A stretch of DNA of 64,000 bases. Origin: Fibrobacteria bacterium. GTDB lineage: Bacteria > Fibrobacterota > Fibrobacteria > UBA11236 > JADFYW01. Positions 1-53,267 of this stretch are shown here, in pieces; within the stretch, counting starts at the first letter, position 1, and each line of letters starts with the position of its first letter. The translations under genes were made by a program, and so were the position numbers. Where the stretch lies: assembly GCA_050294405.1 (NCBI GenBank), contig JBNKOC010000008.1, forward strand, positions 59,332-123,331, written 5' to 3'. The notes beneath the pieces are model-generated. The model searched no databases and had not been told where the DNA came from. It saw nothing but the letters and a program-made list of their open reading frames with translations.

Positions 1-974
1 ATAATTTCCGCATCTAATAAGCCCATTTCTCCCATTCCCACCACTTTTTTCATTGCTTCCGAAGGGTTATAGGGTATGCGATAAGTTCTTTCGCTGCAAA
101 GTGCTTCAAATACATCGCATATGGCCACAATTCTTGAATAAGGGTGGATAACTGATTTTTTTCTTCGTTTGGGATACCCCACTCCAGAGCAGCGTTCGTG
201 GTGCTGGTAGGCTACGAAGGTCACTTGTGGCGGAATACCATCGATTTTTTCCAAAGCATATAAACCGAGAACAGGGTGCTTTTGAACTTCATATAATTCT
301 TCGGCGCTGAGCCTTCCTCTTTTTGTGCGTATGTCGCTGGAAATCAAAGTCATTCCCACATCGGCCAGTAAGGCGGCAGAGCCCAATTCTAATATCTGTT
401 CCTTGGAAAGGCCCATTTCAGCGCCTATGTTAATGCTTAGCATACATACTCTCATAAGGTGGTGGAACAAATAATCATTTTCATCCATAACAAAGGTGGA
501 AAGGTTTTGCACCATAGCGCTGTCGGTGGCCAGCAAGTCCACAAAGGGTTCCACTATCCGGCTGACTGATTTGTAAGATAGGCTTTGGCCATGGGAAAGG
601 CGAGCGTATATTTGCATGGTCTTTTTAAAGCCCTGCTGGTAATTCTTTAATATTTCTTCTTTGTACTGGACAGTTCTTTCGGCTTGTCCGATTTGAGTGA
701 AGGAATTTTTAAAGGGTTCGCCACTGGGAAGTATTTGCAGCAGTTTTGAAATTTTACTTTCAGTATTTTTAACAAACTCCGCATCATTTAAAAATTGAAA
801 GCCCTCTTCTCCTGCGGGAATTTCGCTTAAAAAATTATTTAACTGTTCTTTGCCCTGTTTGGAAACAGAAGAGCTCTTATTCTCAGAGCCGCCATCCTCC
901 TCATCCAGGTCAAGAGAATCAAGTTCCTCAAGTTTTAAGTTGAGCAACTCTTTAATTTCATCTTCGTTTATCAT
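1..974 (-). CDS. HD-GYP domain c-di-GMP phosphodiesterase; N-terminal part only, C-terminus lies beyond the window start
   Basis: Manual minus-strand translation from the ATG at 974-972 (MINEDEIKELL...). It contains the HD-GYP signature ...HHERCSGVGYP..., encoded by plus-strand 201-206 and flanks. It runs off the window edge, which is why it is missing from the ORF track. Confidence 0.7.
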   Translation of the reverse strand, partial: MINEDEIKELLNLKLEELDSLDLDEEDGGSENKSSSVSKQGKEQLNNFLSEIPAGEEGFQFLNDAEFVKNTESKISKLLQILPSGEPFKNSFTQIGQAERTVQYKEEILKNYQQGFKKTMQIYARLSHGQSLSYKSVSRIVEPFVDLLATDSAMVQNLSTFVMDENDYLFHHLMRVCMLSINIGAEMGLSKEQILELGSAALLADVGMTLISSDIRTKRGRLSAEELYEVQKHPVLGLYALEKIDGIPPQVTFVAYQHHERCSGVGYPKRRKKSVIHPYSRIVAICDVFEALCSERTYRIPYNPSEAMKKVVGMGEMGLLDAEI

Positions 975-1230
975 TAAAATATGGCCTTATTCCTCAATCT
1001 GCCCCTAATTCTATTATACGGCAAAAGACTATTTTGTCGAAGAGAAAATAGGACAAAACCCCTGCAAAGGCGGTTTCAGCTTAAATTTGCAATGTGTTTG
1101 TGATTTAAATCACCCTCTTAACGCAAAAATAGTGACTATTTCTTTTTATTTCCAGTGGGAAAATGGATAAAATGGGATTTGAATTCAATAAAAATTGGGA
1201 AGTTGCGAATTTTATTTGAGGTTTTTGGGT

Positions 1231-1932
1231 TCAATTAAAATTCAAACTCAATTTTCCAATATCGTATTCCTTTAAATGCCTCTGCCATCCAAATTGGCTA
1301 TGCACGTAAATGTTGAGATAATCCATTTTGAATGGGGTATTTAGTTCAAAGGGGGAGGATTGAAAATCATATTGCTTGACCACGCTGCCCCCGTCGGCCA
1401 AAATGACCAACCTTGAGCCTTTGGGAAGGGAGTCTATGCGCCCTGAAATTTTTTTGTAATCCTGCTCCACTTCAATGACCGGATTTAAAAAATGGGTGTT
1501 GTAATCAAAAAGCCTCTCTTCTGAAAAATCCAAATCGAAATCTATGTTATGTATGTTTACTTTAAACTCGCTACGGGATTCGGCAATTTCAATCCGGGAA
1601 ATAGAACCAGACACGGGATTTTTGAGGTAATTGCTCTGGGCTGGAATTAAAACGCAACGTACTGTATCGTCCACTCGAACTTCAAGTATGGCTTGGAAAT
1701 TTAAATTCTGGTTAAAGCTAAAATTTAATTTGCCATTGGGAAGATCCTCGTTTTCAATAACTTCAATCACTTTGTTTTTGTAGGCGTCGTTTTCCACAAT
1801 AAAAATATTGTAGTCTCTGGAACTATCGTAGGGATGTATTTCGCCTGAAAGATGGATCTCCACGGAATCCTGTTTACAACCCGTAAAAACAAGAATTGAA
1901 ATTGCAAATAATAAACGCAATATGTTCCTCAT
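1231..1932 (-). CDS. hypothetical lipoprotein
   Basis: Signal peptide with lipobox (LVFTGC); no recognisable domain. Confidence 0.4.
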   Translation of the reverse strand: MRNILRLLFAISILVFTGCKQDSVEIHLSGEIHPYDSSRDYNIFIVENDAYKNKVIEVIENEDLPNGKLNFSFNQNLNFQAILEVRVDDTVRCVLIPAQSNYLKNPVSGSISRIEIAESRSEFKVNIHNIDFDLDFSEERLFDYNTHFLNPVIEVEQDYKKISGRIDSLPKGSRLVILADGGSVVKQYDFQSSPFELNTPFKMDYLNIYVHSQFGWQRHLKEYDIGKLSLNFN

Positions 1933-2130
1933 AAGCAGTACCCTTTAAAGCTGTTAGTGAGTTCCAGAATTCGCATTTCCTGAGTAACCTCTTTTTTATT
2001 TCGGGGCACCCAGACTCAGTTAAAAAGATATTTTAAAAAAAATTGCTTTTCAACTTGAAGGGAGCAATTGTTGGTTTTTTGTGTTCTTCGGGCTTGAGGA
2101 GTTTGGGTTTTTCGCGGTTTTTTTTGGAAG

Positions 2131-2853
2131 TTAATCCTTTTTCCGGCGTTCCAGCTCAATTTCAAAAACCTTTTTCATAATAATATCCTGGATATGGTTT
2201 GGAACATCCATAAAGCGGACCCCGTGTTCATAGGCATTGCCCAGCCGATGGGACCACATGACTTCGGCTTCAAAGACCATATCCTGGTTTTCAAAATTAA
2301 AACTGATTTTTAAAACAGAAGGTTTTTCCAATATTTCATGGTTCAAGAATTTAATACTCTTTACATCCAGTATATCCATAGCTGAGCATAATTTCATTCC
2401 CGATGCGCTAATATCCTTTGCATATATGGGCGCAACATCATTTACATCTTTGTTGTTAATGGATAATATCTGGACATCAATTTTTACATAGGCCCTTACA
2501 TGCTTTCGCCTTTGATCTTTTTTGTATTCCAGAGGATTTTTAATAATGAAAATACCGTTGTCCAGCATTTCCTCTAGTTCAATATCGAAATAATAAAAAT
2601 GCTCGTTTGAACTGAAATTTACTTCACCCGGTCTGTCGCTTAAAATTTTCATTTTGTTTTTAAGATCGGGGCTGAATATTTTTATTCTGGACTTGTTGTA
2701 TTCTATAATTGTGGCTAAATACCGCAATCCGAATTTTTCGGTATGTATGGGGAAACTTTCTTTTCCAACCAAGGGAATGGCGTATGAACCTTCCTTGTTG
2801 GGCAATTTGAATTTTACCGAGATGTTTTTGGGTAATTTAACAACTTCATTCAT
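2131..2853 (-). CDS. PilZ-domain c-di-GMP receptor, YcgR-like (PilZN + PilZ)
   Basis: PilZ motifs QRRKHVRAYV (RxxxR) and DISASGM (DxSxxG) in the C-terminal half; N-terminal YcgR-like domain. Confidence 0.7.
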   Translation of the reverse strand: MNEVVKLPKNISVKFKLPNKEGSYAIPLVGKESFPIHTEKFGLRYLATIIEYNKSRIKIFSPDLKNKMKILSDRPGEVNFSSNEHFYYFDIELEEMLDNGIFIIKNPLEYKKDQRRKHVRAYVKIDVQILSINNKDVNDVAPIYAKDISASGMKLCSAMDILDVKSIKFLNHEILEKPSVLKISFNFENQDMVFEAEVMWSHRLGNAYEHGVRFMDVPNHIQDIIMKKVFEIELERRKKD

Positions 2854-2884
2854 GGAATTAACACCCGGGACGTTTTCTGTCTGG

Positions 2885-3517
2885 CTATTTCCAAAAATTA
2901 AGCTTGCTCAACCAGGCAGCCCTTTCGGCCTCATCTTTCCATTCAAAGTTTACGAATATTTTTCCACTTGGGTCACGCATTATTTGGCAGTCCGGTTTGC
3001 CATTTACGAAAAATTTTAATTGGAGCACATTGTGGAAATCCGAATCCATACCGGGAATATCCTTATTTAAATCCAGTTTTTTCTCTTCCGCAGTCATTTT
3101 AAAAATAGGCTCTTCTTCAATTTTATCCAGAATAGTTCCGCCCAAATGGATTTCATATAAATCCAATACATAAGCTGATTCTTCGTCATCCCATTTTAAA
3201 AATGCCGGAGGCATGGATTCAAAGTCAGAGGAAACATGAAAACTCAGTTCCAACCTATGGTCCTTTTCAAATTGGCTTTTATCCATAAAAAAGCCTTCCA
3301 TTCTAAAGCGGCTGGAGTGGGTACCGTTGGGTTGGGTATACGGTTCTTCGTAATCTTCTAACCCGGATATTTGCTCCATGGTGTAGAGGTCTAAATCACT
3401 CTTTGGTATTGAAATACCATTAGTTGCATTAGATTCTTTTTCTTTGCCTTTTAACTGATTTGAATAAATCATTGAAAAACAAAGCATTACAAAAAAATAT
3501 CTTCCTGGTTTTTGCAT
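2885..3517 (-). CDS. hypothetical secreted protein
   Basis: N-terminal signal peptide (MQKPGRYFFVMLCFSMIYS); no recognisable domain. Confidence 0.35.
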   Translation of the reverse strand: MQKPGRYFFVMLCFSMIYSNQLKGKEKESNATNGISIPKSDLDLYTMEQISGLEDYEEPYTQPNGTHSSRFRMEGFFMDKSQFEKDHRLELSFHVSSDFESMPPAFLKWDDEESAYVLDLYEIHLGGTILDKIEEEPIFKMTAEEKKLDLNKDIPGMDSDFHNVLQLKFFVNGKPDCQIMRDPSGKIFVNFEWKDEAERAAWLSKLNFWK

Positions 3518-3681
3518 AGTTGATTTAAATTATAAGATGCGCCAAACCAATGCAAACAATAAATTGTTAAAACATTAAATTTTGTGTTTTTGCGTAAAAA
3601 TGGCCCTTTTTTTTGCATTTAAAATAAAAATAGACTCTTAAAATCCTTCATTGATCCAAAATTTGAGGGTATAATTATCTC

Positions 3682-4053
3682 ATGAATCAAAAATTTGACG
3701 AAATTTTAGTTTATAATCGTGTGGGAACCCTTAGACGTGTGACTGTGGAAGCATTAAAAAGGTTGAATTATAGTTCAATAAAAGAGTTCTCAAGCAAGGA
3801 TGAATTGGAAAAAGAGCTTAAATTAGATATTCAATTTTTGTTGATTTTGGAGATAACAGGGGAGAACCCTGTGTCCGAGCTTGAGCTAATTCAAAAATAT
3901 TCGGGCCGTCATAGAATGCTGGTTACTCTTCAAATAAGCAGTAAAGAGTTGATTTTAAAACTTTCTCGTGCTGGGGCTAAAAATGTGCTCTTAAAGAGTT
4001 TGGATATCGGAGGCTTCTCTGAAAAATTACAAACCGCTCTCGGTCCCCGTTAG
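3682..4053 (+). CDS. CheY-like pseudo-receiver domain protein (acid pocket lost)
   Basis: Aligns along its whole length to CheY (ILVYNRVGTLRRVTVEALKRL.. versus [21 protein letters not shown]..). DD is replaced by NR and the phospho-Asp position is Glu (LILEITGENP); the conserved Thr and Lys are retained. RBS GAGGG sits upstream. Confidence 0.5.
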   Translation: MNQKFDEILVYNRVGTLRRVTVEALKRLNYSSIKEFSSKDELEKELKLDIQFLLILEITGENPVSELELIQKYSGRHRMLVTLQISSKELILKLSRAGAKNVLLKSLDIGGFSEKLQTALGPR

Positions 4054-4062
4054 CAGCTGTTT

Positions 4063-4902
4063 TTAAATAAAGAAATCGGCATTGGAAATTTCTCGTTTTA
4101 CCTTTTCCACGAGCTCTTCCAAAACTTCGCTGGAAAGGTTTAAGTCGTGTAAAGCACCCTGGCTACAATTCTCAGGCATTTTCTTGCTCGGCATCAAAAA
4201 ACCAAACAAAGAGGCGTAGAAATCGGCAACATGGACGGCCTGAGTGAGGCCCAGTTCCTGATGGGCGGATTTATCGGGAAAATGATGGAATTCCACGGCG
4301 CACAACAAAGCCTCTGGCAATTTCCATTCCTGCAATAAAACCCTTCCTGCGCTCCCGTGGTCTATACCAAAAAAATCTTTTTCCAAAATGGATATATCAA
4401 TGGATTGGCTTTCTGATTTTTCTATTAGCTCCTGATACTTTTCCGGCTCCAGGCTGGATAAAATCAGAATCCCGATATCATGGAAAAGCCCGGCAATGTA
4501 AGCGGAATCCGGATTTATTTTTTTTTCTTTGGAGCCCTCAATAATAAGTCGGGTTATTAAGGCTACGCTCACAGAGTGTTTCCAAAACTCCTTAATGTCC
4601 ATGTTTTTTGAAGTGGGGGAGTTTTGAATCATGGAAATAGCCAGGGATATTTTACTGACCTCCTTAAGGCCTATTCTGGAAACAGCTTGAGAAATTGATC
4701 CAATGCTTCCATATTTTCCAGCATACTTAACTGAATTGGCAATTTTAAGAAAGTGGGCGGACAGGGCGATATTCTTTTCTATGGTTTGAATGACTTCGGA
4801 AAATTCCACATTGGGATCTTGGATACATTTTAAGAAATATTGGGTTTCAATACCCAGAGAGGGGAGGGAATCCAGCGATAATATTCTTTTAGTTATATCC
4901 AT
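4063..4902 (-). CDS. HDOD domain signalling protein
   Basis: HDOD signatures LFHDIGILIL and EFHHFP...AVHVADFYAS. It is the last gene of the che operon. Confidence 0.75.
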   Translation of the reverse strand: MDITKRILSLDSLPSLGIETQYFLKCIQDPNVEFSEVIQTIEKNIALSAHFLKIANSVKYAGKYGSIGSISQAVSRIGLKEVSKISLAISMIQNSPTSKNMDIKEFWKHSVSVALITRLIIEGSKEKKINPDSAYIAGLFHDIGILILSSLEPEKYQELIEKSESQSIDISILEKDFFGIDHGSAGRVLLQEWKLPEALLCAVEFHHFPDKSAHQELGLTQAVHVADFYASLFGFLMPSKKMPENCSQGALHDLNLSSEVLEELVEKVKREISNADFFI

Positions 4903-4910
4903 TTTAAAAT

Positions 4911-5282
4911 TTACTGTTCGCTATCCAAACACTCCATGATTTTTACCATTAATTCTTCCTGGGTAAAAGGCTTCATTATGTAATTGGTGGCTCCAGCTCC
5001 GATGGCTTCTATAATTTTATCGGGTTCATTTACCGCTGTGAGCATTATTATGGGAATGTTGCTTAAGCTTTCATTTTCCTTAATAGCTTTAACAGCGCTA
5101 AGGCCGTCCATTACAGGCATATCCCAATCCATTAATATTAATCCCACATCGCTATTGTTGCTCAAAGCATCTAAAGCGGCCTGGCCGTTTTCAGCTTCCA
5201 GGGTATTGTGCCCCAGCATATCCAGGGCATTTCGAACCAACTTTCTGATAGTTGGCGAGTCATCAACTGATAGTATGTTCAT
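4911..5282 (-). CDS. cheY: chemotaxis response regulator CheY
   Basis: Single receiver domain: SVDDS, LILMDWDMPVMDG, T at LTAV, YIMKPF. Overlaps the cheR stop by 4 nt. Confidence 0.85.
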   Translation of the reverse strand: MNILSVDDSPTIRKLVRNALDMLGHNTLEAENGQAALDALSNNSDVGLILMDWDMPVMDGLSAVKAIKENESLSNIPIIMLTAVNEPDKIIEAIGAGATNYIMKPFTQEELMVKIMECLDSEQ

Positions 5283-6124
5283 AGAGGCACCCTCTTTTTA
5301 TAATACAATCCTATGGGCTTAATTTTATTGGAAAAGGATTCTGTAATACCTGTTAAACTTTCCGCTCCCCCCACAATTAAAATTCCAAAGGAGGATAATT
5401 TTTGCGCAATTTTTTCAAACATTTGGCTTTTGGTTTTACTGCTAAAATAGATAGCCACATTTCGGCAAAATACAATATCCATGGTGGGGACATCATCAAA
5501 TTTGTCTAAAATGTTTAATCGTTTAAACTGAACTAAGTTTCTTACAGAATCTTTAATAGTCCAAATTTTTTCATCCCCATCAAAATATTGGGATAAATGA
5601 GCTTCATCCATTCCCCGACTCATGGTGAATTTGTCGTATCTTCCCGAACGGGCTAAAAGTAAAATAGGATCTGATATGTCTGTTGCCGTAATTTTAATTT
5701 TCTCTACGGGAAAATCCGGATGTTTCTTTTGGTAGTCCAATATTGTCATGGCAATAGAATAGGGCTCCTGGCCCGTGGAACAGGCGCAACTCCATATATT
5801 TGCAAAAATTCTCTTTCCGCTTTTGAACTCTTCATGTAATTCAGGCAAAAATTCTTCGGCCAACAATTTAAAAGGGTACCCGTCCCGAAACCACAAGGTT
5901 TCATTGGTGGTCATAGCATCCAAAATTTTATCCCTAAGACCCGAGGCTTTTTCTGATACAGCCTTTTTGTGGAGCTCCCCAATGCTCTTGCATCCATTGG
6001 TAGCCATTAAGACGGTGAGGCGGCTTTCCACTAAATATTCTTTTTCATCTCCCAGACAAATACCGCAATGCTCTTCGATAAACGAGCGGATATCCAAAAA
6101 TTCCTGCCGGGTCATGATGCTCAT
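5279..6124 (-). CDS. cheR: chemotaxis protein methyltransferase CheR
   Basis: TNETLWFRD, IWSCACSTGQEPYSIAM (SAM-binding), FCRNVAIYF. Confidence 0.9.
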   Translation of the reverse strand: MSIMTRQEFLDIRSFIEEHCGICLGDEKEYLVESRLTVLMATNGCKSIGELHKKAVSEKASGLRDKILDAMTTNETLWFRDGYPFKLLAEEFLPELHEEFKSGKRIFANIWSCACSTGQEPYSIAMTILDYQKKHPDFPVEKIKITATDISDPILLLARSGRYDKFTMSRGMDEAHLSQYFDGDEKIWTIKDSVRNLVQFKRLNILDKFDDVPTMDIVFCRNVAIYFSSKTKSQMFEKIAQKLSSFGILIVGGAESLTGITESFSNKIKPIGLYYKKRVPL

Positions 6125-7186
6125 TTAAACTTTTACCCTCTCCTGGGATATAATTTCAATGGCCTGGGAAATCTCATCTACATCCAGTTCCAAATCAGAT
6201 AAACCAGCATCCACAACAGCCTTTGGCATTCCGTAAATGGTACAGCTGGACTCGGATTGGGTAATGGAGTAGCAACCTTTTTTCTTTAGGGCTTTAACTC
6301 CCTCAAGGCCGTCCTGACCCATTCCTGTCAGCATAATAGAGGCTGTGGAAAAACGGTAGTTTTTTGCAATGGATTCAAACAATACATCTACAGAGGGACG
6401 GCAACTATTCACTTTTTCCTTTTCATTGATATCCAGTTTATATTGAAACCCCTCTTTTACCAACTCCATGTGTTTTCCGCCCGGAGCGAAATACACAGTG
6501 TTTGCCTGAAGCTCCATGTTAGGTTCAGCTTCGCATATCTTAATAGGAGTTAATTTATCCAAATTGGCCGCCAGGGACTTTGTAAAGTTCGCAGGCATAT
6601 GTTGCACTACTAATATTGGCACCTGAGATGATTTGGTTAACTTTGAAAAAATTTGGGTTAAAACTTTAGGACCCCCGGTACTCACTCCGATGGCAATTAG
6701 TTGGACATCTTTTGGGAGCGCGGTATTTAAATTTTTACTGGGTTTTTGTTCTATGCGGGATGTTCGTTTAGGGGACTGTGCAGCAACCAAGCTTAAGCAG
6801 TTACTCAAGTGTTCCTTTAATTTCCCAAAGTTTTCGTCAACGCTGGAACTTCCCGGTTTAGGGATAAAATCCAAGGCGCCCATTCTAAGGCCCATAATAG
6901 TGTCCGGGGCATTCTTTTGGCTAATGCCACTAATCAAAACCACAGATGTATTAGGGTATTTTTGCAGAATTAGCCCCAGGGTTTGCACGCCGCCCATACC
7001 TGGCATATGTATATCCAACAATACCAAATCAGCTTCTTTTTCTTTGAGAACTTCCAAGGCGTTTTCCCCAGATGAAGCTTCATCTATTATGTCTACATTT
7101 TCAAAATGGCTCAGTGATTTTCTGATTACCTTGCGATAGAGCAGGTTATCATCCACTATTAAAACTTTGATTTTGGAAGAGTTCAT
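6125..7186 (-). CDS. cheB: protein-glutamate methylesterase CheB (REC + methylesterase)
   Basis: N-terminal receiver (VLIVDDNLLYRK...DIHMPGMGG). C-terminal esterase motifs IAIGVSTGGP, VVQHMP, RPSVDVLF, TGMGQDG, YGMP. Confidence 0.9.
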   Translation of the reverse strand: MNSSKIKVLIVDDNLLYRKVIRKSLSHFENVDIIDEASSGENALEVLKEKEADLVLLDIHMPGMGGVQTLGLILQKYPNTSVVLISGISQKNAPDTIMGLRMGALDFIPKPGSSSVDENFGKLKEHLSNCLSLVAAQSPKRTSRIEQKPSKNLNTALPKDVQLIAIGVSTGGPKVLTQIFSKLTKSSQVPILVVQHMPANFTKSLAANLDKLTPIKICEAEPNMELQANTVYFAPGGKHMELVKEGFQYKLDINEKEKVNSCRPSVDVLFESIAKNYRFSTASIMLTGMGQDGLEGVKALKKKGCYSITQSESSCTIYGMPKAVVDAGLSDLELDVDEISQAIEIISQERVKV

Positions 7187-7190
7187 AAAG

Positions 7191-7673
7191 TCAATAATTG
7201 CTTTTAGCTACCTTTTGCTCCAATATGTTTAGGAGGTTCAGTACAATTATTAAATTGTCGTTTTGCTTAATTATTCCATCCACCATATCGCTGTGAATGC
7301 CTGTTACATTGGCCGGTACAGGCTCAATATCTGTTTCTGCTAAATTTACAATATCACCGACCTTATCCACTAAAAGGCCTATTTTTTCTTTTTGCAAAAA
7401 CCCCAATTGGTTTTGTCCGGAAGGCCAATCCGGTTTATCTTTTAAAACCAGACAGTGGGAGTCTTTTCCTATTTCAATGTTATCAAATCCTATACAATAG
7501 GGAAGATCCATTACTGTAATGATTTGGCCTCTTAAGTTTAACAACCCCGTTATAAAAGTCGGGGCCAAATCCACTTTGGATACTTCCAGATTCTGGTTTA
7601 TTTCTCTTATGTACCTTATATCCAAGGCGTATAATTTGTCGTTTATATAAAAGGTGGTAAAAGAAAGAGCCAT
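7191..7673 (-). CDS. cheW: chemotaxis coupling protein CheW
   Basis: 160-aa single CheW-like domain (YALDIRYIREI...LLNLRGQIITVMDL). Confidence 0.8.
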   Translation of the reverse strand: MALSFTTFYINDKLYALDIRYIREINQNLEVSKVDLAPTFITGLLNLRGQIITVMDLPYCIGFDNIEIGKDSHCLVLKDKPDWPSGQNQLGFLQKEKIGLLVDKVGDIVNLAETDIEPVPANVTGIHSDMVDGIIKQNDNLIIVLNLLNILEQKVAKSNY

Positions 7674-7679
7674 AATATG

Positions 7680-10600
7680 TTAGTTTAAAAACTGGCTTAA
7701 GGTTAATAGAATTTTCTTTTTATCCCATTTGGATTCCACAGCGTCAAAATCCAACTTTCGGTCCCGTTCCTGCGCCGGAATTACACCGGTGCTGCTCATA
7801 GCTACCACAGGAATACTTTTTAAGGAGTCCGAGGATTTTATTTTTGAGGCGAGCTCGTAGCCATCCATTCCGGGCATGTTTAGATCCGATAAAATCAAAT
7901 CAAAATTTTCCTGGCCGGAAAGGGCGTCCCAGGCTTCTTTGCCATTGGAACATATTTTCAATTCGCAATTGGGGTGATCTAAATAAGCCCGAAGCAGTTT
8001 TCCGAAATAATCCGTATCTTCTGCAATTAAAATTTTCTTTTGATTTAAAAAGTCGTAATTAAATTTGTGTTTTGGTTGAGCTTTTTCCACAATTTTAAAA
8101 AGGTCCAATATAAGCAACATATTTTTGTTTACAATTTGGGACCCTAAAATGCCTTCGGGGCTGGTTCCGCTTTGTTCCAGATTGCCCATGCAATTTACAG
8201 TATCAAAAAGTTCGCTTGCTAAAATGCCCACCTGGTTTTCATTCAATTTGGGGATAATTACAAATTCATAGGGGAAATCCGAATCTCCCCGGGAGATAGG
8301 CAAATAGTCGTTGAGTTCTATTAAAGGTAAGGATTTTGATTCGTATTTTAAATAAAGTTTGCCGCTGATGTTCTCCACATTTTCCCTATGAATTTTTTCA
8401 ATTCTGGAAATCATGGATAAGTTAAAAGCCAATAATTCACTGCCTCCAACCTTAAAACTTAACATGGCCTGTGCTTCTTCCAACTGCCGTTCTTTTTCCA
8501 TTTTCGCTTCTTCTATAGAGCTTTCGGCAATATCATCAAATTTTAATTTGGCCATTTCTGATATGCCTACCGAATCCAATATCATGGCAATTTGCCCGTC
8601 TCCCAAAATGGTGACGCCGCTGTAGCAAGGGCTGTCTTTTAAAAAAGCGCTAAGGGGCTTCACCACAATTTCTTCATTGTTTATTACCGAGTCCGCAATT
8701 AAGCCGTAGTGATTTTTACCTATGTTTATGACGCAAATAATAACGCTGCCTGTGGCATTTTGCCGTCTATCAGGATTTTTTCTTCTTTCCTGAATCTCTT
8801 CGGCGATTTCCTGCCCATTTCTTCTATCCGCCATATGTATGCGATGATTTGGGTGGCGCTTGTTGGTTTCGCTGTCCAAATATGTGGTTTGGATGTTAAG
8901 CACATCGGTAAGTTTCACAAGCGGCAGCAATTTGCCCCGAAGGCGTAAAACTTCAAAGCCATTCACATTTTCTATTTTTTGGCTTATTTCCGAGTTCTTT
9001 ATGCGCACTAATTCCTCCAGGCCGACCTGGGGAAGCGCAATTTTTCTTCCCTCTACAGATAAGATAAGAGAAGGTATAATGGCCAATGTTAAGGGCAACC
9101 TTAATGTGATAAGCATGCCCTTATCAAACTCGGAATCCACTTCAAGTATTCCGCCCAACTTCTCCACATTGGTTTTTACCACGTCCAAACCAACTCCTCG
9201 GCCAGATACATTGGAAATATTTTTGGCCGTGGAAAAACCGGGTCTAAAAATCAAATTCTTCTTTTCATTTTCCGAAAGAATCATGGCCTCGTCTTCCGAG
9301 ATGATCTTTTTATCAAGGGCCTTAGCCACAATTTTTGGAATGTTTAAACCTGCACCATCGTCTTTTATTTCAATGACTATTTTTCCGCTTTTGTGATAGG
9401 CGCTTAATTGGATAAACCCCTGTTTGTTTTTTCCCTTTTGCTCTCTTTCTTCGGGGGGTTCAATCCCATGATCGCAGCAGTTTCGAATGAGGTGAGTAAG
9501 AGGATCTGTTAAAAGTTCCAGCACGGACTTGTCCATTTCCACTTCTGAACCTGTGATGTGGAGTGAAATTTCTTTGCCTAACATCTTGGAGAGATCTCTT
9601 ATGACTCGAGGAAATTTGTTGAATAGAAGTCCAATGGGCTGCATGCGGGATTGCATAATGCCTTCCTGCAAATCACTGGTGATACGGGAAAATTGCTGAA
9701 TCAGGGAATTGATGCTTGTAAAGTCGGATAATTTTTTAGAGCTGGCCTGGCTGTAAACGCTTTTTATTTGGGAACAATGGTTGGAAATATTTCCTTGTAA
9801 GTTTTGGATTTTTTCTGGCTCTGCGCTGGGAAAAGCCTGAGTTACAGATTGCATAATCTGGTTCTGAAAATCCTCCATGAGTTTTTCCACAAGTCCCAAA
9901 CCCTGGTTCTGCCCATCTAAAGTTTTCAGAGGCTGATTAAATTGCTGCATAATCTGGTTGCGGCTAAGAACCAGTTCACCCGCCAGGTTCATCAGGTTGT
10001 TGAGCAAGTCCAGTTTTACTCTCAGAGTTTCATTGTTGCTGTTTGCCGCTTTGGCCTTCTTTTCATTCCCCGATGTTTTGATAGTTTCAATGGCTTTTTC
10101 CCTGGTCTTTTTCAAGTCTGTTTTTAGGGCAGTGTCATCAAACTTCCGGATTTGGGCAGGGTCTATGTTAAGAGCCAGTTGGGCGTATTCCTCTTCTAAA
10201 ACCGAGGTAAACAATATCAAAGCCGGTTGTTTGGCTTCGCCCCTTCCCTTTGCGCTCTTTTTTGGCTTTTTTTCCTGGGGAATTAAATGAATTCCGGCGA
10301 TGTCGCCCAGCTTTCGCCATTCATTTAAAATGGGATCTTCTTCAGGGTTGTTTGCCTGAATTCCTTCTTCCCAATTTATTTCATATATGTAATGGCCTTG
10401 TTGTATATGGCTATTTAATTTTTGCTCGCTAAGTTCCTTGTAAACGGATAGGATGTATTTAAAATCAAATTTTTCGGAAAGTTCAGCGTTTTGAGAGTTT
10501 TTCTTCGGGTTGGGGGAGTTTTGCCTCGCTGGTTCAATATTATCAGCGCCTGGCTCAAGCGCCTTTAGCTTAACGATAACATCCTCAATTTCCAGTTCGT

Positions 10601-10937
10601 TACTTTTTTCAAGTTCATCCAGTAAATGCTTGAGTTTATCCATCCCTTCAAATAAGACATCAATTATTTCTACAGTAATTTCCTGTTGCTTATCTCGAAG
10701 CCTTCCCAACAGGTTTTCCAGCTCGTGGCTCAAATCGCGGATGTTTGTAAAACCAAAAAAACTGAATCCGCCTTTTATGCTGTGTATAGCTCTGAAAATA
10801 TGATTTAATATTTCATCGGAAACATTTTTGCCTGATTTTTCTAATTCCAGAATATCTGGCTCAATGTCGCTAAGATGTTCCAGGGACTCCTGGAGCAATT
10901 CAGCAACTAATTCATTGTTTCCATCCATAATTTGCAA
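7680..10937 (-). CDS. cheA: hybrid chemotaxis histidine kinase CheA (Hpt, dimerisation/HATPase, three CheW-like domains, C-terminal receiver)
   Basis: Hpt HSIKGG. N-box HLIRNCCDHGIE, G1 IKDDGAGLN, G2 GRGVGLDVV. Three CheW-like segments. C-terminal receiver ILIAEDTDYF...LILSDLNMPGMDG. Confidence 0.9.
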   Translation of the reverse strand: MQIMDGNNELVAELLQESLEHLSDIEPDILELEKSGKNVSDEILNHIFRAIHSIKGGFSFFGFTNIRDLSHELENLLGRLRDKQQEITVEIIDVLFEGMDKLKHLLDELEKSNELEIEDVIVKLKALEPGADNIEPARQNSPNPKKNSQNAELSEKFDFKYILSVYKELSEQKLNSHIQQGHYIYEINWEEGIQANNPEEDPILNEWRKLGDIAGIHLIPQEKKPKKSAKGRGEAKQPALILFTSVLEEEYAQLALNIDPAQIRKFDDTALKTDLKKTREKAIETIKTSGNEKKAKAANSNNETLRVKLDLLNNLMNLAGELVLSRNQIMQQFNQPLKTLDGQNQGLGLVEKLMEDFQNQIMQSVTQAFPSAEPEKIQNLQGNISNHCSQIKSVYSQASSKKLSDFTSINSLIQQFSRITSDLQEGIMQSRMQPIGLLFNKFPRVIRDLSKMLGKEISLHITGSEVEMDKSVLELLTDPLTHLIRNCCDHGIEPPEEREQKGKNKQGFIQLSAYHKSGKIVIEIKDDGAGLNIPKIVAKALDKKIISEDEAMILSENEKKNLIFRPGFSTAKNISNVSGRGVGLDVVKTNVEKLGGILEVDSEFDKGMLITLRLPLTLAIIPSLILSVEGRKIALPQVGLEELVRIKNSEISQKIENVNGFEVLRLRGKLLPLVKLTDVLNIQTTYLDSETNKRHPNHRIHMADRRNGQEIAEEIQERRKNPDRRQNATGSVIICVINIGKNHYGLIADSVINNEEIVVKPLSAFLKDSPCYSGVTILGDGQIAMILDSVGISEMAKLKFDDIAESSIEEAKMEKERQLEEAQAMLSFKVGGSELLAFNLSMISRIEKIHRENVENISGKLYLKYESKSLPLIELNDYLPISRGDSDFPYEFVIIPKLNENQVGILASELFDTVNCMGNLEQSGTSPEGILGSQIVNKNMLLILDLFKIVEKAQPKHKFNYDFLNQKKILIAEDTDYFGKLLRAYLDHPNCELKICSNGKEAWDALSGQENFDLILSDLNMPGMDGYELASKIKSSDSLKSIPVVAMSSTGVIPAQERDRKLDFDAVESKWDKKKILLTLSQFLN

Positions 10938-11042
10938 ATATTGGGCGGGTTTTCACAAAAGGGCCCGTTTAAAATTCATCTTAGTATACACCCAATGCAA
11001 ATCAGGCTTCAAGAAATAAAAAAGAGCTTTCTTAATGAAAAG

Positions 11043-11435
11043 CTAATTGGCAGAAATGTTGGGGATGGGGGAGAGCAGGTATTTCTTTAGAAAATTTTCA
11101 AATTCTCCACGATTTATGGGCTTTGCCATAAATGCGGTGGCCCCAATATCCAGCAAGCTGCCAATTTCTTTAACAGAAATAAAGGCTGAACACATAATTA
11201 TGGGAATATTCACAAAATCCTGCTGCTTTCTGGTTTCTTTAATGAATGTTTTACCATCCATTTCCGGCATTTTGTAATCCACTACAATGGCGCTAAAGTC
11301 CGGATTATCTTCTAGCATTTGCAGTCCCCGTAACCCATTACTGGCTACTATAGATACAATTCCCATGGACTCCGCAATTCTGAGAATGAGCCTTTGAGTC
11401 ATGCGTTCGTCTTCTACAATTAAAAGTTTTTTCAT
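11043..11435 (-). CDS. single-domain response regulator (CheY-like), first gene of the che operon
   Basis: LLIVEDERMTQRL...VVDYKMPEMDG...MCSAF...FMAKP. Confidence 0.8.
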   Translation of the reverse strand: MKKLLIVEDERMTQRLILRIAESMGIVSIVASNGLRGLQMLEDNPDFSAIVVDYKMPEMDGKTFIKETRKQQDFVNIPIIMCSAFISVKEIGSLLDIGATAFMAKPINRGEFENFLKKYLLSPIPNISAN

Positions 11436-18316: not shown

Positions 18317-18670
18317 ATGGTGGGTATTCGATATTCCAATTTTGGGGGTTGGAATATCTTGGTAGGGTTTTTTTGGATGTATGTAGGTTGTATCATTTTT
18401 TTTACATTCATTCAAGTAAAATTTTTAATTATTAAACAAAAATTAAACGGTCTAAAGTTCATGACCATTATTTAAAGACTTGGGGCAATAAAATTTCTAG
18501 TTTTAAGCCAGACTGCATTTTTTAAAAATGAACAACCCCAAGCATTAAGCAGGTTGGTTATGCTCAAAATTAAAGGGCATCAATTTGCATCGGGATAATG
18601 TAAAGGGTAAGTAAACTGTCTAAACAATTTGTGCACCCTTTCCCGGGGGCGGTTAAAAGGATTCTCTGTT

Positions 18671-20524
18671 ATGATACAGTTAAATACACTCACACCCACA
18701 GGAATATTGTTGGTAGACGATGATCCAAGTTCTCTTGCGGTAATGGAAAGCAGCCTCAAGGCCGATTTCGAGATTTTTAAGTCTTCCAATGTTGCCGCTG
18801 CCCAAGATATTCTTAGCACTGGGAAGATCGCAGTTATTGTTTCAGATTTAAAAATGCCCGGAGAATCCGGGCTTGAACTTTTGAGAAAGGCCAAAGAAAA
18901 TTTCCAGGATGTTCCCTTAATTTTGGTAACAGGCGAAGGAGACAAAAGTTCAGCCATAGAGGCCCTAAAGTTGGGAGCTTACGATTACATTGAAAAACCT
19001 ATTCACAAGCAAGAATTATACAATAGCGTCAAACATGCCTTTGATTCCTTTGCCTCAAAACACACTGCCCGGGAGTACCAAAGAGTTTTAAAGTTGTTGG
19101 AAGCGGGGGTCCAATGTGCAGGAGAAGCCATTTTTATTGGATACCTTTCTTCGGAAAATGGGGATGGGGTTATCGAATATGTGAACAATGCTTTTACCCG
19201 TCAAACAGGGTTGGCTGCCAAGGATATTATCGGAAAGTCACCACGGGTATTTCAGGGGAAGGAATCTGACCCATTATTTCTGGAAAAATTGCGCTCTTCC
19301 ATTGAAAATAATCGCGATTATTTAGGGGAAACTCTGAATTACCGGAAAAACGGCACCAGCTACTTTTCAGAGTGGCAAATAAGCCCTCTGTATCTTGATG
19401 AAACACCCACCAAGTACTGGATTTGTGTTATGCGCGACATTAAAGAAAAAAAGGTGGTAGAGGAAAGACTATTGCAAATAGAAAAAGAAGTGGAGTCTTT
19501 AAAAGGCAACCTGAAGGTTGAAAACCTAAAATACCCTGGCGCTTTTCAAAATATTATTACTCAAAATTTGAAGATGTTTGGCCTATTCCATTACATCGAA
19601 TTGATACAAAATTCTCAGCAACCCATTTTGCTTTGTGGGGAACCTGGAACCGGAAAGTCCTTATTGGCGGAGGCCATATATATTGCCTCAGGGATGCCGG
19701 GAGCTTTCCATCGTTTTGATTGTGATTTAGGAAGCACGCAGTTGGAATTGGATAAGCTCTTTCAATCCTTAAAGGATAATGGAAATAACGGAACCCCTAA
19801 CGGCAGCAATGGAGCTCAAAAAGTTCAGGGGGTGGTCTACATAAGAAATGTGCACAAACTCCCCCTTCCCAGTCAGGCTAAATTACTCCGATTTTTACAA
19901 GAGCTGGAATTTCTGGGTATGAATGATGTGAATAGCCTTTCCGGTGGGATTAAAATATTGGCTTCCACATCCAAATCACTTAATGAGTTGGCCGACTCTG
20001 GCAGTTTCAGAAGAGATTTGTACTACAAGCTCTGTCACCATCAAATAGCCTTGCCAGCTCTTAGGGAAAGGGTGGATGATTTGCCGGTTCTCATAAACCA
20101 TTTTCTGGCCATTGGAGCTCAAACTATGGGGATGAATAAACCTTCTTATCCCAAAGAGCTTTTGACACTGCTTTCTGCCTATCATTTTCCCCAGAATGTG
20201 GAAGAGCTTAGAGATATGGTCTTTCGGGCTTTGGAAAACCACAATCGGGGTATATTATCCATGGATTCCTTCAAAGACTCACTGCAAAAAACAGAAAATG
20301 CTAAGGGAAGTTCTACTAGAGACGCCATGGTGAAAGTGAATCGAAAAGAATCTTTAGTTTCTTTTTCCAGCCGTTTGCCTACACTAAGAGAGATGACCAG
20401 CGAACTAATTTTAGAAGCTCTGCGCCGCTCAAATGACAACCAGGGCATTGCTGCAAAAATTTTAGGAGTCAGCCGTCAGGCCTTAAACAAAAGGCTTAAC
20501 CGCCTGGGCTCCGGCGATAATTAA
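18671..20524 (+). CDS. REC-PAS-AAA+-HTH regulator, NtrC-like but with a degenerate sigma-54 activation module
   Basis: Receiver (ILLVDDDPSS...VSDLKMPGESG), PAS, Walker A GEPGTGKS, Fis-type HTH (AAKILGVSRQALNKRL). ESELFGH/GAFTGA are absent and Walker B DE is replaced (GVVYIRNVH). The ORF track starts at 18629; ATG 18671 is more likely. Confidence 0.7.
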   Translation: MIQLNTLTPTGILLVDDDPSSLAVMESSLKADFEIFKSSNVAAAQDILSTGKIAVIVSDLKMPGESGLELLRKAKENFQDVPLILVTGEGDKSSAIEALKLGAYDYIEKPIHKQELYNSVKHAFDSFASKHTAREYQRVLKLLEAGVQCAGEAIFIGYLSSENGDGVIEYVNNAFTRQTGLAAKDIIGKSPRVFQGKESDPLFLEKLRSSIENNRDYLGETLNYRKNGTSYFSEWQISPLYLDETPTKYWICVMRDIKEKKVVEERLLQIEKEVESLKGNLKVENLKYPGAFQNIITQNLKMFGLFHYIELIQNSQQPILLCGEPGTGKSLLAEAIYIASGMPGAFHRFDCDLGSTQLELDKLFQSLKDNGNNGTPNGSNGAQKVQGVVYIRNVHKLPLPSQAKLLRFLQELEFLGMNDVNSLSGGIKILASTSKSLNELADSGSFRRDLYYKLCHHQIALPALRERVDDLPVLINHFLAIGAQTMGMNKPSYPKELLTLLSAYHFPQNVEELRDMVFRALENHNRGILSMDSFKDSLQKTENAKGSSTRDAMVKVNRKESLVSFSSRLPTLREMTSELILEALRRSNDNQGIAAKILGVSRQALNKRLNRLGSGDN

Positions 20525-20539
20525 AAAAGAAAAAAAAAA

Positions 20540-20567
20540 AGAGCCCTGACCAGGAGGCTCTTTTTTT
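20540..20567. terminator. bidirectional rho-independent terminator
   Basis: A-run, then AGAGCC-ctgaccagga-GGCTCT, then T7. Confidence 0.6.
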
Positions 20568-20786
20568 ATTTAGGAGTTTTCAAAAGTCCGTTGCGCGAGT
20601 TATTTAATTTCATTATATGGGAAACCAACCAAGGTTTCAATATTTTTTTTAAAAGAATTTGATTCTCTATGTATAGGATATTGGGCTGTTTGGGAAATTG
20701 TATTTTTGTCTGTCAAGAAAGCATGGCAAGGGGAAATTTTTGCCCACTAAAAATCTAAAAGTTCTATATCTTAGATTGAATTTCAA

Positions 20787-21185
20787 ATGGCTGAGCGGTA
20801 TGATTATACCGAGGAAGTTATGAAATTCTTACTTGCAGATGATTCAAAAACAATTCGGCGGTTGTTAAAAACCTATTTAGGCAGCATGGGTTTTGAAGAT
20901 TTGGTGGAAGCTCAGGATGGAGAAGAAGCTTTGGAAATGTTGAAGGCTGAAATTCCTGATGTATTGATCCTGGATTGGAACATGCCTAAAAAATCAGGGA
21001 TTGAAGTTTTAAAATCCGCCCGGGAAGAAGGCGAGTTTAAAGAATTGAAAATTTTAATGTGCACATCAATGAGTGAAAAAGAAAATGTTATTGAAGCCAT
21101 TAAAGCTGGCGCTAACAATTATATGACCAAGCCTTTTTCAGAGGATATTCTAAAAGAAAAATTAGGGGCTTTAGGAATTATATAA
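20787..21185 (+). CDS. CheY-like single-domain response regulator
   Basis: FLLADDSKTIRR...LILDWNMPKKSG...NNYMTKPF. Alternative start at ATG 20820. Confidence 0.8.
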   Translation: MAERYDYTEEVMKFLLADDSKTIRRLLKTYLGSMGFEDLVEAQDGEEALEMLKAEIPDVLILDWNMPKKSGIEVLKSAREEGEFKELKILMCTSMSEKENVIEAIKAGANNYMTKPFSEDILKEKLGALGII

Positions 21186-43335: not shown

Positions 43336-43983
43336 ATGAAGAATTTTAGAATCGCTGTCTGGCTTATGGTACTCGGCTTCCTATGTGCCACATCCACTTT
43401 GGCTCAGCAGGAATATCTGCTTCGCCCGGGAGACATTATTGTGGTTTCTGTTGTGGATAACCCAGAATTTTCTGTTCGCTCAAAAATCAGACCAGATGGC
43501 AGAATTAACTTTCCCGTTTTAGGTGACATCGAAGTTGCAGGTAAAAATACAACAGGAATTGTGGCCATGATGGAAGAAAAGCTACAGCCCTATGTAAATA
43601 ATGCTGCTGTTAGCGTGACGATTGAGCAGTATTTTGCCAATAAAATATTTTTGATTGGGGATTTAAATGCCAATGGCGAATTTGAAATTTTTGAACCTAT
43701 TGACGTTATTCGGGCTATAGCCATGGCTGGAGGTCTTAAAAACCCCAAAGCCAAAGAGGCAAGAATTATCAAAGGCAATGGGGAAGTTATTTCTGTTCCC
43801 CTTCGCAAGTTATTTACAACAGCCGGTGCCGCAAAAAATGAGAGCTATTTGCTACACCCGGGTGATACATTTTATGTTCCTAAACCGTTTAGCATTCCCT
43901 GGAGCTCATGGAATTTGGTGGTAGCGACCTTGTCCTCTACCATTGTGTTGTATTTCTTAATACAGCAGCTGGGCGGCAGCTAA
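43336..43983 (+). CDS. short Wza-like polysaccharide export protein (Poly_export/SLBB), PEP-CTERM-locus type
   Basis: Signal peptide. LRPGDIIVVSV Poly_export motif, SLBB segment. Only 215 aa with a C-terminal hydrophobic helix. Confidence 0.75.
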   Translation: MKNFRIAVWLMVLGFLCATSTLAQQEYLLRPGDIIVVSVVDNPEFSVRSKIRPDGRINFPVLGDIEVAGKNTTGIVAMMEEKLQPYVNNAAVSVTIEQYFANKIFLIGDLNANGEFEIFEPIDVIRAIAMAGGLKNPKAKEARIIKGNGEVISVPLRKLFTTAGAAKNESYLLHPGDTFYVPKPFSIPWSSWNLVVATLSSTIVLYFLIQQLGGS

Positions 43984-44002
43984 TTTAATTTTATAATATA
44001 CC

Positions 44003-44881
44003 TTGGTTACTATGGAAAAAGTGGAGAACAGCTATCTTTCCTTTTTCGCATTGCATAAATTCCCATTTGACGAGTCCAAAGACACGTCCTTCTTTTTTGA
44101 AAGTGACGATCATTTGGAAGCTCTGGAGAGGCTGGAATATATTGTAAATGACGGAAATATGAATTTTGGGCTGCTTACAGGCGAAGTGGGTAGCGGTAAA
44201 ACCATGCTTAGAATGGTTTTGGAAAACCGAATGGACCGAACCCAGTTTGAGCCCGCAGTTTTGGAAAACTCTTTTTATCCCTTTGAAGATATTGTTTATG
44301 AAATCATAACCCAAATAAAGAATATTTCCGGCCAGCATTTTTTCCTTCAGGAATCAGAGCTTCCAGCCCGGGGCGATAAATATGGATTAGTGAGTACTCT
44401 TAAAAAAATTATGGAGCTAATTCACCTTAAGGAAAATCGTCGGCTTGTCATAATTATGGACGAAGCCCAACAGCTAGATGTTAAGGATTTGGATGAATTA
44501 AAGAACCTAACCAATATTTCTGCAGATGGGGTCAATTTGGTGACCATCATTTTGGCGGGACAGCCGGAGCTAAGAGAAAAGGTAAGGGCGTTAAAACAGG
44601 TAGATCAGCGCATTAGCCTTCGATTCCACCTAAATAACCTACATTTTGAAGATACCAAAAAATACGTGGAGCACCGGCTTAAGGTAGCTGGCCATAAGTC
44701 CGGAAAATTGCTTTCCGATAAAGCATTAGAAGTCTTATTTCGTTATACCCTGGGCGTGCCAAGGGAAATCAATCGAGCCTGTAAATTATCCCTTGAACAT
44801 GCCTTTGCAAATGATAGAGGATTAGTAGAGGAAGAAATTGTAAAAACAGTTCTCGAGGATTTGGAACGCCATCGGTTATAA
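44003..44881 (+). CDS. ExeA-like AAA ATPase of EPS loci
   Basis: Walker A GEVGSGKTMLRMV, Walker B IIMDEAQ. Stop/start overlap TAATG with the next gene. Confidence 0.75.
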   Translation: MVTMEKVENSYLSFFALHKFPFDESKDTSFFFESDDHLEALERLEYIVNDGNMNFGLLTGEVGSGKTMLRMVLENRMDRTQFEPAVLENSFYPFEDIVYEIITQIKNISGQHFFLQESELPARGDKYGLVSTLKKIMELIHLKENRRLVIIMDEAQQLDVKDLDELKNLTNISADGVNLVTIILAGQPELREKVRALKQVDQRISLRFHLNNLHFEDTKKYVEHRLKVAGHKSGKLLSDKALEVLFRYTLGVPREINRACKLSLEHAFANDRGLVEEEIVKTVLEDLERHRL

Positions 44882-49393: not shown

Positions 49394-49479
49394 TATTGTC
49401 CTGTTTTTAATTCCTTAAAAATAGTTTGACTTCACTTGGGGGAAACTGGATTTTCATACAAAGGGAGATTTTAACCTCA

Positions 49480-51555: not shown

Positions 51556-51560
51556 GTTAA

Positions 51561-51956
51561 ATGGATTTTAGCGGCTTAAAAAATATACTGTCCAAAAGAA
51601 AAAATTCATTAGAAGAGTATTTATACCTCCAACTCGAATTATTTAAAAATATTCAAAACGGTCCGGGTAGCAAAACTCGCGACCTGGAAAATGAACTTGA
51701 GACTGTAAACAAAGATATTGAAACTCAACGTCTGGTATTGCAGCCTTTGCTTAAAGAGTGGGGAAGGCTTGAAGCCCAGCAGAAATCAGTGCATTTAAAA
51801 GGCGAAATTGGCCAGATTTTAAATGAAATTGAAGGCATCGCCCACAAAATAGAAGGCGATCACAAGCTTCAAAACAAAGAAATTGGGTCTAATGAGGGAA
51901 TGAAAACTCAATTTAACAGCCAATTGGCTCAAAACAGTATTTATTTGTCAAAATAA
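51561..51956 (+). CDS. hypothetical small coiled-coil protein
   Basis: 131 aa, 6 nt after the TPR gene; no known domain. Confidence 0.3.
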   Translation: MDFSGLKNILSKRKNSLEEYLYLQLELFKNIQNGPGSKTRDLENELETVNKDIETQRLVLQPLLKEWGRLEAQQKSVHLKGEIGQILNEIEGIAHKIEGDHKLQNKEIGSNEGMKTQFNSQLAQNSIYLSK

Positions 51957-51996
51957 AGCCCAAATATTTAAAAAATCCACATTCTCTCAATGGTAT

Positions 51997-52004
51997 TGTA
52001 TAAT
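51997..52004 (+). promoter_or_regulatory. extended -10 promoter (TGnTATAAT) for the histidine kinase gene
   Basis: TG at 51997-98, TATAAT at 51999-52004. RBS GGAGATAGG, then ATG 52029. Confidence 0.45.
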
Positions 52005-52028
52005 GGGAGATAGGAAAAAAATTCCGCT

Positions 52029-53264: not shown

Positions 53265-53267
53265 CAC

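Follow-up and report, generated by a model that had tools for sequence, protein, structure and literature searches.

Organization of the che operon

The window analysed here, a 64-kb stretch of contig JBNKOC010000008.1 from a Fibrobacteria bacterium, carries an operon of chemotaxis (che) genes that ends in a gene for a stand-alone HDOD protein. An earlier note on this DNA, the original prediction, had described the operon as a chemotaxis-like pathway that lacks a chemoreceptor and is physically linked to effectors of cyclic di-GMP (c-di-GMP). We find seven co-directional genes on the minus strand (11435-4063) in the order REC-CheA-CheW-CheB-CheR-CheY-HDOD. This order, with HDOD in last position, is the predicted one and is confirmed by the listing of open reading frames (ORFs) together with Pfam and NCBIfam matches.

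The first gene of the unit encodes a single-domain receiver (REC) of 130 aa (11043-11435, minus strand, as for all genes of the operon; Pfam Response_reg 1.5e-18). In an alignment with E. coli CheY it retains the acidic pocket (E-D) and the equivalents of D57, S87 and K109. It is followed by the hybrid kinase CheA, identified by Pfam (7680-10937), for which the ATG at 10928 is the likely start; an identical protein that begins at this ATG is P0001. The next genes encode the coupling protein CheW with 160 aa (7191-7673; Pfam CheW 1.7e-23), the methylesterase CheB with an N-terminal receiver (6125-7186; Pfam CheB_methylest 2.6e-60, NCBIfam CheB 340.9 bits with a cut-off of 293) and the methyltransferase CheR (5279-6124; Pfam CheR 2.7e-51, CheR_N 7.2e-12). 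CheY has 123 aa (4911-5282; Pfam 3.3e-29). It shares 43% identity with E. coli CheY and keeps D12, D13, D57, T87, Y106 and K109. The phospho-acceptor is also retained in the remaining receivers of the operon, as judged from the alignment. The final gene encodes the HDOD protein of 279 aa (4063-4902; Pfam HDOD 2.9e-48, HD 4.4e-09).

From CheA to HDOD, adjacent genes overlap or lie 0-8 nt apart, which is the tight packing that had been predicted. It does not extend to the first gene pair. The gap between REC and CheA amounts to ~105 nt, so that these two genes do not abut, and it contains a 13-bp GC-containing hairpin at 10941-10972, directly upstream of the cheA start. This hairpin might act as an attenuator or mark a site of processing. 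A promoter-like site (11504-11475) precedes the first receiver gene, and a terminator-like hairpin (4046-4031) together with a convergent plus-strand gene marks the end of the operon. By eye, no sigma-28-like promoter (GCCGATAA-like element) is seen upstream of the operon. No CheX, CheC or CheZ is detected in the window, nor in L002, which is another contig from this organism and continues ~5.9 kb past the left edge of the window.

Domain architecture of CheA

Pfam gives the domain order Hpt, dimerisation domain, HATPase, CheW, CheW and REC for CheA, with one Hpt domain and no P2 match. The C-terminal Response_reg domain covers aa 969-1058 and is divergent in its alpha4-beta5 region. Three CheW-like domains had been predicted, and HMMER indeed reports three CheW stretches, yet the number of domains is two. 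The count was settled by Pfam scans of sub-fragments and of a spliced sequence. Residues 624-681 match positions 3-59 of the Pfam CheW profile, residues 730-791 match positions 70-133, and a charged insert of 48 aa between them (aa 682-729, window 8750-8893) splits the first CheW domain. Once this insert is excised, the two halves fuse into a single match over profile positions 3-133, and three true CheW domains were rejected on this ground. Residues 822-955 form the second, complete CheW domain. Two CheW domains with an insert of 9-75 aa at the same position are found in all 120 of the 120 closest CheA homologues, and a REC domain in 48 of the 120.

The original prediction took a CheA with a receiver and several CheW domains as a hallmark of systems such as Wsp and Chp. 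According to the CheA survey of Berry, Andrianova and Zhulin 2023 (PMC10782961), 99% of F5 CheAs have a duplicated CheW domain, which is seen outside F5 only in some F1 CheAs and in one F10 CheA. Receivers borne on CheA are typical of F3, F5, the alternative cellular function class (ACF) and the type IV pilus class (Tfp), and REC is common in F5 (PMC10782961). The survey also describes an insert of ~50 aa that splits the first CheW domain and gives an apparent "three CheW" architecture in some CheAs, for example in Desulfobacteraceae (PMC10782961). ACF CheAs carry one CheW domain and Tfp CheAs several Hpt domains (PMC10782961). With one Hpt and two CheW domains, the kinase in the window was rejected as an ACF or Tfp member on architecture. 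Further traits of these classes are also missing from the window, in which the system has only single-domain receivers and CheB as regulators, no methyl-accepting chemotaxis protein (MCP) and no regulator for a specialised output. The kinase fits the survey's description of F5, and this contradicts the idea of such CheAs as hallmarks of Wsp- or Chp-like systems; by architecture, the combination is an F5 signature.

The experimentally studied CheAs with two CheW domains (R. centenum, A. brasilense, C. crescentus and A. caulinodans) all belong to F5, and for the kinases of R. centenum and A. caulinodans defects in chemotaxis or phototaxis are described (PMC10782961). The F5 systems studied to date govern flagellar chemotaxis (PMC10782961). 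Judged from its domain architecture, the CheA system of the window is most likely of the flagellar type and of class F5. A CheA of a standard flagellar class is one of the two outcomes that the original prediction had itself listed as refuting it.

The HDOD protein and its association with che genes

The HDOD protein reaches 164.4 bits with the Pfam HDOD model, which has a cut-off of 22.9, and the predicted domain is thereby confirmed. Five histidines and one aspartate (H109, H141, D142, H182, H206 and H207) form the set of di-metal ligands. In the alignment H109, H141, D142, H182 and H206 are invariant and H207 is nearly so. The best PDB match is 3HC1, an HDOD protein of G. sulfurreducens (1.2e-43), whose structure contains a di-iron site of five histidines and one aspartate (PMC12075610). 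Members of the domain number in the tens of thousands: at E<=1e-30, the profile of this subfamily matches 13,967 clusters formed at 50% identity, mainly stand-alone proteins of ~290 aa. REC-HDOD fusions are present among the homologues.

An alignment of 14 HDOD orthologues was used to scan metagenomes and gave 80 loci, which were then searched with local hidden Markov models (HMMs) for CheA, CheW, CheB, CheR, CheY, MCP, CheX, PilZ and HD-GYP. A che-specific gene on the same strand, at most 6 kb from the HDOD orthologue, is present at 38 of the 63 loci whose flanking sequence measures 1 kb or more and at 16 of the 26 loci that have 3 kb or more on each side. Among the gene orders are CheR-CheY-HDOD-CheX-CheB, (MCP)-CheW-CheA-CheR-HDOD-CheB and HDOD-CheX-CheY. 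In several phyla, HDOD is part of at least three types of che cluster, namely as CheY-HDOD-CheX, as CheR-HDOD-CheB and as HDOD-CheX-CheY.

The best homologues of the window's CheA share ~40% identity and come from Fibrobacterota, Raymondbacteria, Chitinivibrionia-like and Desulfobulbaceae metagenome-assembled genomes (MAGs). SucC of the window's organism is 64-65% identical to proteins from Fibrobacteria MAGs. Three related clusters share the HDOD gene. L003 (GCA_964590225.1) reads CheA-CheW-MCP-CheB-CheR-CheY-HDOD-CheX-CheX and adjoins flhA-flhF-flhG-fliA and a second HDOD gene. In this flagellar region (L003:2487-9011), the second HDOD gene lies two genes downstream of fliA, beside a 7TMR-DISM/PAS protein. 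L004, from Raymondbacteria, has the order CheA-CheW-MCP-CheB-CheR-CheY-HDOD-CheX, where the MCP is a gene of 438 aa with a clear MCP hairpin. L086, from Fibrobacteres, has the order of L004 but two MCPs. Other relatives carry no HDOD gene. L087 reads STAS-CheA(no REC)-CheW-CheB-CheR-CheY and is also without MCP, and in L005, a Desulfobulbaceae MAG, and the closely related L088 a GGDEF/HD-GYP gene is followed by CheA-CheW-MCP-CheB-REC-CheR.

HDOD proteins with motility phenotypes include Xanthomonas GsmR, Campylobacter Cj0248 and the Pseudomonas proteins PSPTO_4229, PFL_0554, PFL_5871 and SadB. Despite these repeated phenotypes, the literature examined assigns no biochemical function to HDOD, and our literature search found no paper that treats HDOD itself as a component of che clusters. 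In one assay, SadB of P. aeruginosa showed no binding of c-di-GMP (PMC12075610); for SadB of P. fluorescens, the same paper cites a report that it does bind (PMC12075610). HDOD is not an established c-di-GMP effector domain. We conclude that the HDOD gene is a genuine, conserved terminal member of the operon in the window and a conserved, little-studied companion of flagellar-type chemotaxis operons.

Chemoreceptors

The operon holds a full phosphorelay and adaptation set, and the predicted lack of a chemoreceptor is borne out, as no MCP is found in the 64-kb window (Pfam on all large ORFs; local MCP HMM). An MCP gene just past the window edge had been named as the finding that would turn the locus into an ordinary chemotaxis operon. 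This candidate was rejected from the sequence of L002, in which the local MCP HMM finds no MCP in the ~5.9 kb past the left edge. Most likely, the receptor genes lie in another part of the genome, one of the two possibilities named in the original prediction, which also allowed for their absence. The cheB gene of the window begins 4 nt past the end of cheW, and it is here that related clusters have one or more MCP genes. The window's operon is therefore the operon of its relatives minus the internal MCP and CheX.

The MCPs inside the related clusters L003 (13742-15472), L004 (13715-15031) and L005 (14078-16312) come from three lineages. All three extend exactly 147 aa (21 heptads) beyond the hairpin tip and share a conserved (Q/C)FKV terminus. 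By a rough length count, they seem one heptad per arm short near the glycine hinge when compared with Tsr and TM1143, the latter of which we take to be a 44H receptor.

Genes downstream of the operon

The original prediction placed a pseudo-receiver, a YcgR-type PilZ receptor and an HD-GYP phosphodiesterase directly downstream of the operon and derived from them an output in c-di-GMP turnover or sensing. All three genes do lie downstream. They are interspersed with two genes without annotation, for a secreted protein (3517-2885, minus strand) and a lipoprotein (1932-1231, minus strand), and they belong to units that are separate from the operon.

The possible pseudo-receiver is a protein of 123 aa that lacks the aspartate (3682-4053). 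It is encoded on the plus strand, convergent with HDOD, and 9 nt separate the two stop codons. The relationship to receivers is seen by hhalign only, in which the protein aligns to the REC profile along its full length (probability 72%, E 3.3e-05). Pfam gives no match at E<=5, and neither the acidic pocket nor the phospho-acceptor is conserved.

The PilZ protein of 240 aa (2131-2853, minus strand) matches Pfam PilZ over aa 114-225 with 1.1e-09 and 39 bits, above the cut-off of 22.5. Its RxxxR (RKHVR) and DxSxxG (DISASG) motifs are intact. The PilZ assignment stands, whereas "YcgR-type" is unproven, since the N-terminal 113 aa have no relevant Pfam match at E<=5, including YcgR-N or PilZN-type domains. 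Single-sequence AlphaFold models of the PilZ protein (pLDDT 42) and of the 123-aa protein (pLDDT 39) were both unusable. The PilZ gene begins 31 nt after the gene for the secreted protein (3517-2885), with which it is probably co-transcribed.

The HD-GYP-family protein runs off the window with the first 324 of its 410 aa (1-974, minus strand; Pfam HD_5 3.2e-25); the full length was taken from L002:5549-6781. Both the HD_5 domain and the HHExxDGxGYP motif (QHHERCSGVGYP) are present, which agrees with the prediction as far as the family is concerned. The predicted phosphodiesterase activity agrees less well with the catalytic dyad. The sequence LLADVGM stands at the position of LLHDIGK in 5Z7C (V-cGAP3) and PMHDIGK in 4MCW (PmGH), so that the HD dyad is changed to AD by a replacement of His with Ala. 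With this dyad replaced, the protein may not be an active phosphodiesterase, and it may represent a degenerate, possibly sensor-type HD-GYP. The aligned PDB entry 9RC0 also has a non-HD residue pair (SQ) at the dyad position.

The downstream units are separated by gaps of 198-256 nt with promoter-like sites. Ahead of the HD-GYP-family gene lies a strong promoter-like site (1040-1013) within a gap of 256 nt after the lipoprotein gene. Beyond this gene, L002 continues with an AI-2E-type transporter, an asparagine-synthase-like gene and FG-GAP and NUDIX proteins. Rfam at the gathering threshold gives no match in the window, and thus no c-di-GMP riboswitch was detected. We consider the PilZ and HD-GYP genes to be separate transcription units and most likely unrelated chance neighbours of the operon.

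Proposed function of the operon

Taken together, we favour a fairly ordinary, F5-like chemotaxis operon of the flagellar type, with HDOD as a conserved accessory, with receptors encoded elsewhere and with the PilZ and AD-GYP genes as coincidental neighbours, and we give this reading a probability of roughly 0.7. Receptors from elsewhere in the genome would assemble with CheW and the two-CheW CheA into arrays. CheA would phosphorylate CheB and CheY, of which CheY would regulate the motor switch, and the receptors would be adapted by CheR and CheB. With no gene for CheX, CheC or CheZ in the vicinity, the receiver fused to CheA and the stand-alone receiver upstream may take the part of phosphate sinks or modulators. 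The terminal HDOD protein would be a conserved accessory part of such operons that is controlled by, or acts on, phosphorylated CheY (CheY-P), by analogy with the REC-HDOD fusions. A flagellar output is suggested by the L003 cluster, which adjoins flhA-flhF-flhG-fliA, and by a CheY that keeps all switch residues. The phospho-acceptors retained in the other receivers fit a flagellar system as well.

Several points weigh against this reading. The F5 label is drawn from CheA architecture. Pfam finds no flagellar gene within the 64-kb window. The receptors of the relatives, with arms of 21 heptads by the rough count, are unlike the 38H receptors that reportedly go with alphaproteobacterial F5 systems in work on A. 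brasilense. The PilZ and HD-GYP models with which neither gene was found beside HDOD at any of 79 loci (0/79) are single-sequence, weak models that may miss divergent neighbours. Finally, a c-di-GMP connection in this CheA family is possible, given the GGDEF/HD-GYP hybrid gene just upstream of cheA and on its strand in L005 (8340-9734) and L088 (8146-9540). It is the sole recurrent c-di-GMP gene seen next to this CheA family.

The lack of flagellar genes within the window would also fit a system that looks like F class and controls a non-flagellar process such as exopolysaccharide production or surface behaviour, with HDOD as an enzymatic output activated by CheY-P. The complete di-metal phosphohydrolase site of HDOD and the REC-HDOD fusions, which suggest control of HDOD by a receiver, are in line with such an output. 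There is also a parallel in a group-beta che cluster of Geobacter, which regulates extracellular matrix expression according to unpublished preliminary results mentioned in Tran et al. (PMC2577667). We nevertheless regard a non-flagellar output as unlikely. CheY is canonical and of the motor type, L003 is embedded among flagellar genes, and the relatives have CheX, a CheY-P phosphatase of motility systems, after HDOD. Moreover, published HDOD mutants show mainly motility phenotypes.

HDOD could itself dephosphorylate CheY-P, in a function analogous to that of CheZ or CheX, and so stand in for the missing CheX. The intact metal-dependent phosphohydrolase site, the position of the gene directly after cheY and the lack of a detectable CheX, CheC or CheZ in the window and L002 would be explained in this way. 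In most of the related clusters, however, HDOD and CheX occur side by side, which counts against simple redundancy of the two. Soil-type clusters have HDOD between cheR and cheB without an adjacent cheY, and we know of no biochemical precedent for HDOD as a CheY-P phosphatase. We therefore hold HDOD as a stand-in for CheX to be improbable.

An ACF pathway with c-di-GMP sensing or turnover as output through the HDOD, PilZ and HD-GYP proteins is the least likely alternative and a poor candidate. In its favour, the operon does close with HDOD, the c-di-GMP-binding motifs of the PilZ protein are intact, an HD-GYP-family gene lies less than 4 kb away, L005 and L088 have a GGDEF/HD-GYP gene ahead of cheA and CleA is a precedent for a c-di-GMP effector within a che operon. 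On the other side, CheA has an F5-like architecture, PilZ and HD-GYP belong to separate units past a convergent gene, such neighbours are seen neither at the 79 HDOD loci nor at the closest related clusters L003, L004 and L086, the dyad of the HD-GYP-family protein reads AD, and P. aeruginosa SadB, which is an HDOD protein, showed no binding of c-di-GMP in one assay (PMC12075610). L005 and L088 are closely related and represent a single lineage. The c-di-GMP output of the original prediction is accordingly not upheld.

Che operons without MCP are commonplace and the c-di-GMP wiring is unsupported, so that the finding as first put forward adds little. The point of interest is HDOD, a widespread domain with a complete metal site that is usually encoded beside cheY, cheX, cheR or cheB. 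We tentatively propose, at somewhat less than even odds, that the stand-alone HDOD protein with intact di-metal site is a widespread chemosensory auxiliary, which would act either as an output enzyme under CheY-P control, in the manner of a split REC-HDOD protein, or as a new CheY-P phosphatase. If this holds, the operon in the window, which has neither CheX nor an internal MCP, would be a minimal example. HDOD in che operons offers a setting in which interaction with CheY-P and phosphohydrolase activity can be tested.

Other features of the window

On the upstream side, the operon is flanked on the opposite strand by genes for a ClpB-like ATPase, MoaC and haem synthesis. A second single-domain CheY-like protein (20787-21185) with 44% identity to E. 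coli CheY is encoded 9 kb from the che operon, after a REC-PAS-sigma54 activator (both within 18629-21185). A polysaccharide export cluster (43336-59242) shows matches below threshold to XrtA/PEP-CTERM-associated export, ATPase and tyrosine-kinase families. After it come genes for a PAS histidine kinase, a sigma54 response regulator, a second kinase, a HAMP-GGDEF protein and a TPR-TonB_C protein. The species representatives of GTDB include no close relative of the organism, and a genome scan with its HDOD protein yielded a single, distant locus. Its proteins are singletons in a collection of 15 billion proteins and are seen only on one NCBI contig and in run SRR36185844.

Comparison with known systems

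The original prediction could not match the wiring to a described system. Two described systems precede it, the group-alpha che clusters of Geobacter (PMC2577667) and Caulobacter che1 with its gene for the c-di-GMP effector CleA (PMC5677366). Links between c-di-GMP signalling and chemotaxis are known from the YcgR motor brake, from MapZ and CheR1 in P. aeruginosa, from PlzC in V. cholerae and from CleA, all of which act on the motor or on chemotaxis proteins. In contrast, the PilZ protein of the window belongs to a separate unit, and its adjacency to the operon is not conserved. No N-terminal domain of the YcgR type is detectable in it.

Wsp (ACF) and Chp (Tfp) share with the present system the C-terminal receiver of CheA, CheB and CheR. 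Each of them encodes its own receptor and a dedicated output regulator, WspR in the one case and PilG and PilH in the other. The system in the window has neither of the two, nor does its CheA have the single CheW domain of ACF or the several Hpt domains of Tfp.

The HDOD domain is shared with REC-HDOD regulators and with the stand-alone motility proteins GsmR, Cj0248, PSPTO_4229 and SadB, and the fusions imply that HDOD can be under receiver control. Unlike the HDOD protein of the window, these four are not described in their papers as members of che operons. SadB lacks three metal-binding histidines and acts as a proteolysis adaptor, whereas all six ligands are present here.

In gene content, the operon is similar to the group-alpha clusters described by Tran et al. 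2008 (PMC2577667), which consist of cheA, cheW, cheB and cheR without mcp and each contain a stand-alone HD-domain protein; this likeness was matched by description. The authors found group-alpha clusters only in Geobacteraceae, and the cluster of G. sulfurreducens has an upstream sigma-28 site that ties it to the flagellar regulon (PMC2577667). Such a site was not seen by eye in the window.

The closest match in architecture is found in the F5 systems of R. centenum (Che1), A. brasilense (Che1), C. crescentus (che1) and A. caulinodans, where CheA likewise carries the CheW domain twice, ends in a receiver and lacks P2. As in the window, these operons also contain genes for CheW, CheB, CheR and a single-domain CheY. 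In the gene order of Caulobacter che1, cheA comes after a receiver gene, and a second CheY is encoded behind the adaptation genes. The operon described here differs from these systems in the 48-aa insert within the first CheW domain of CheA, in its terminal HDOD gene and in its phylum, and its relatives have receptors with arms of seemingly 21 heptads.

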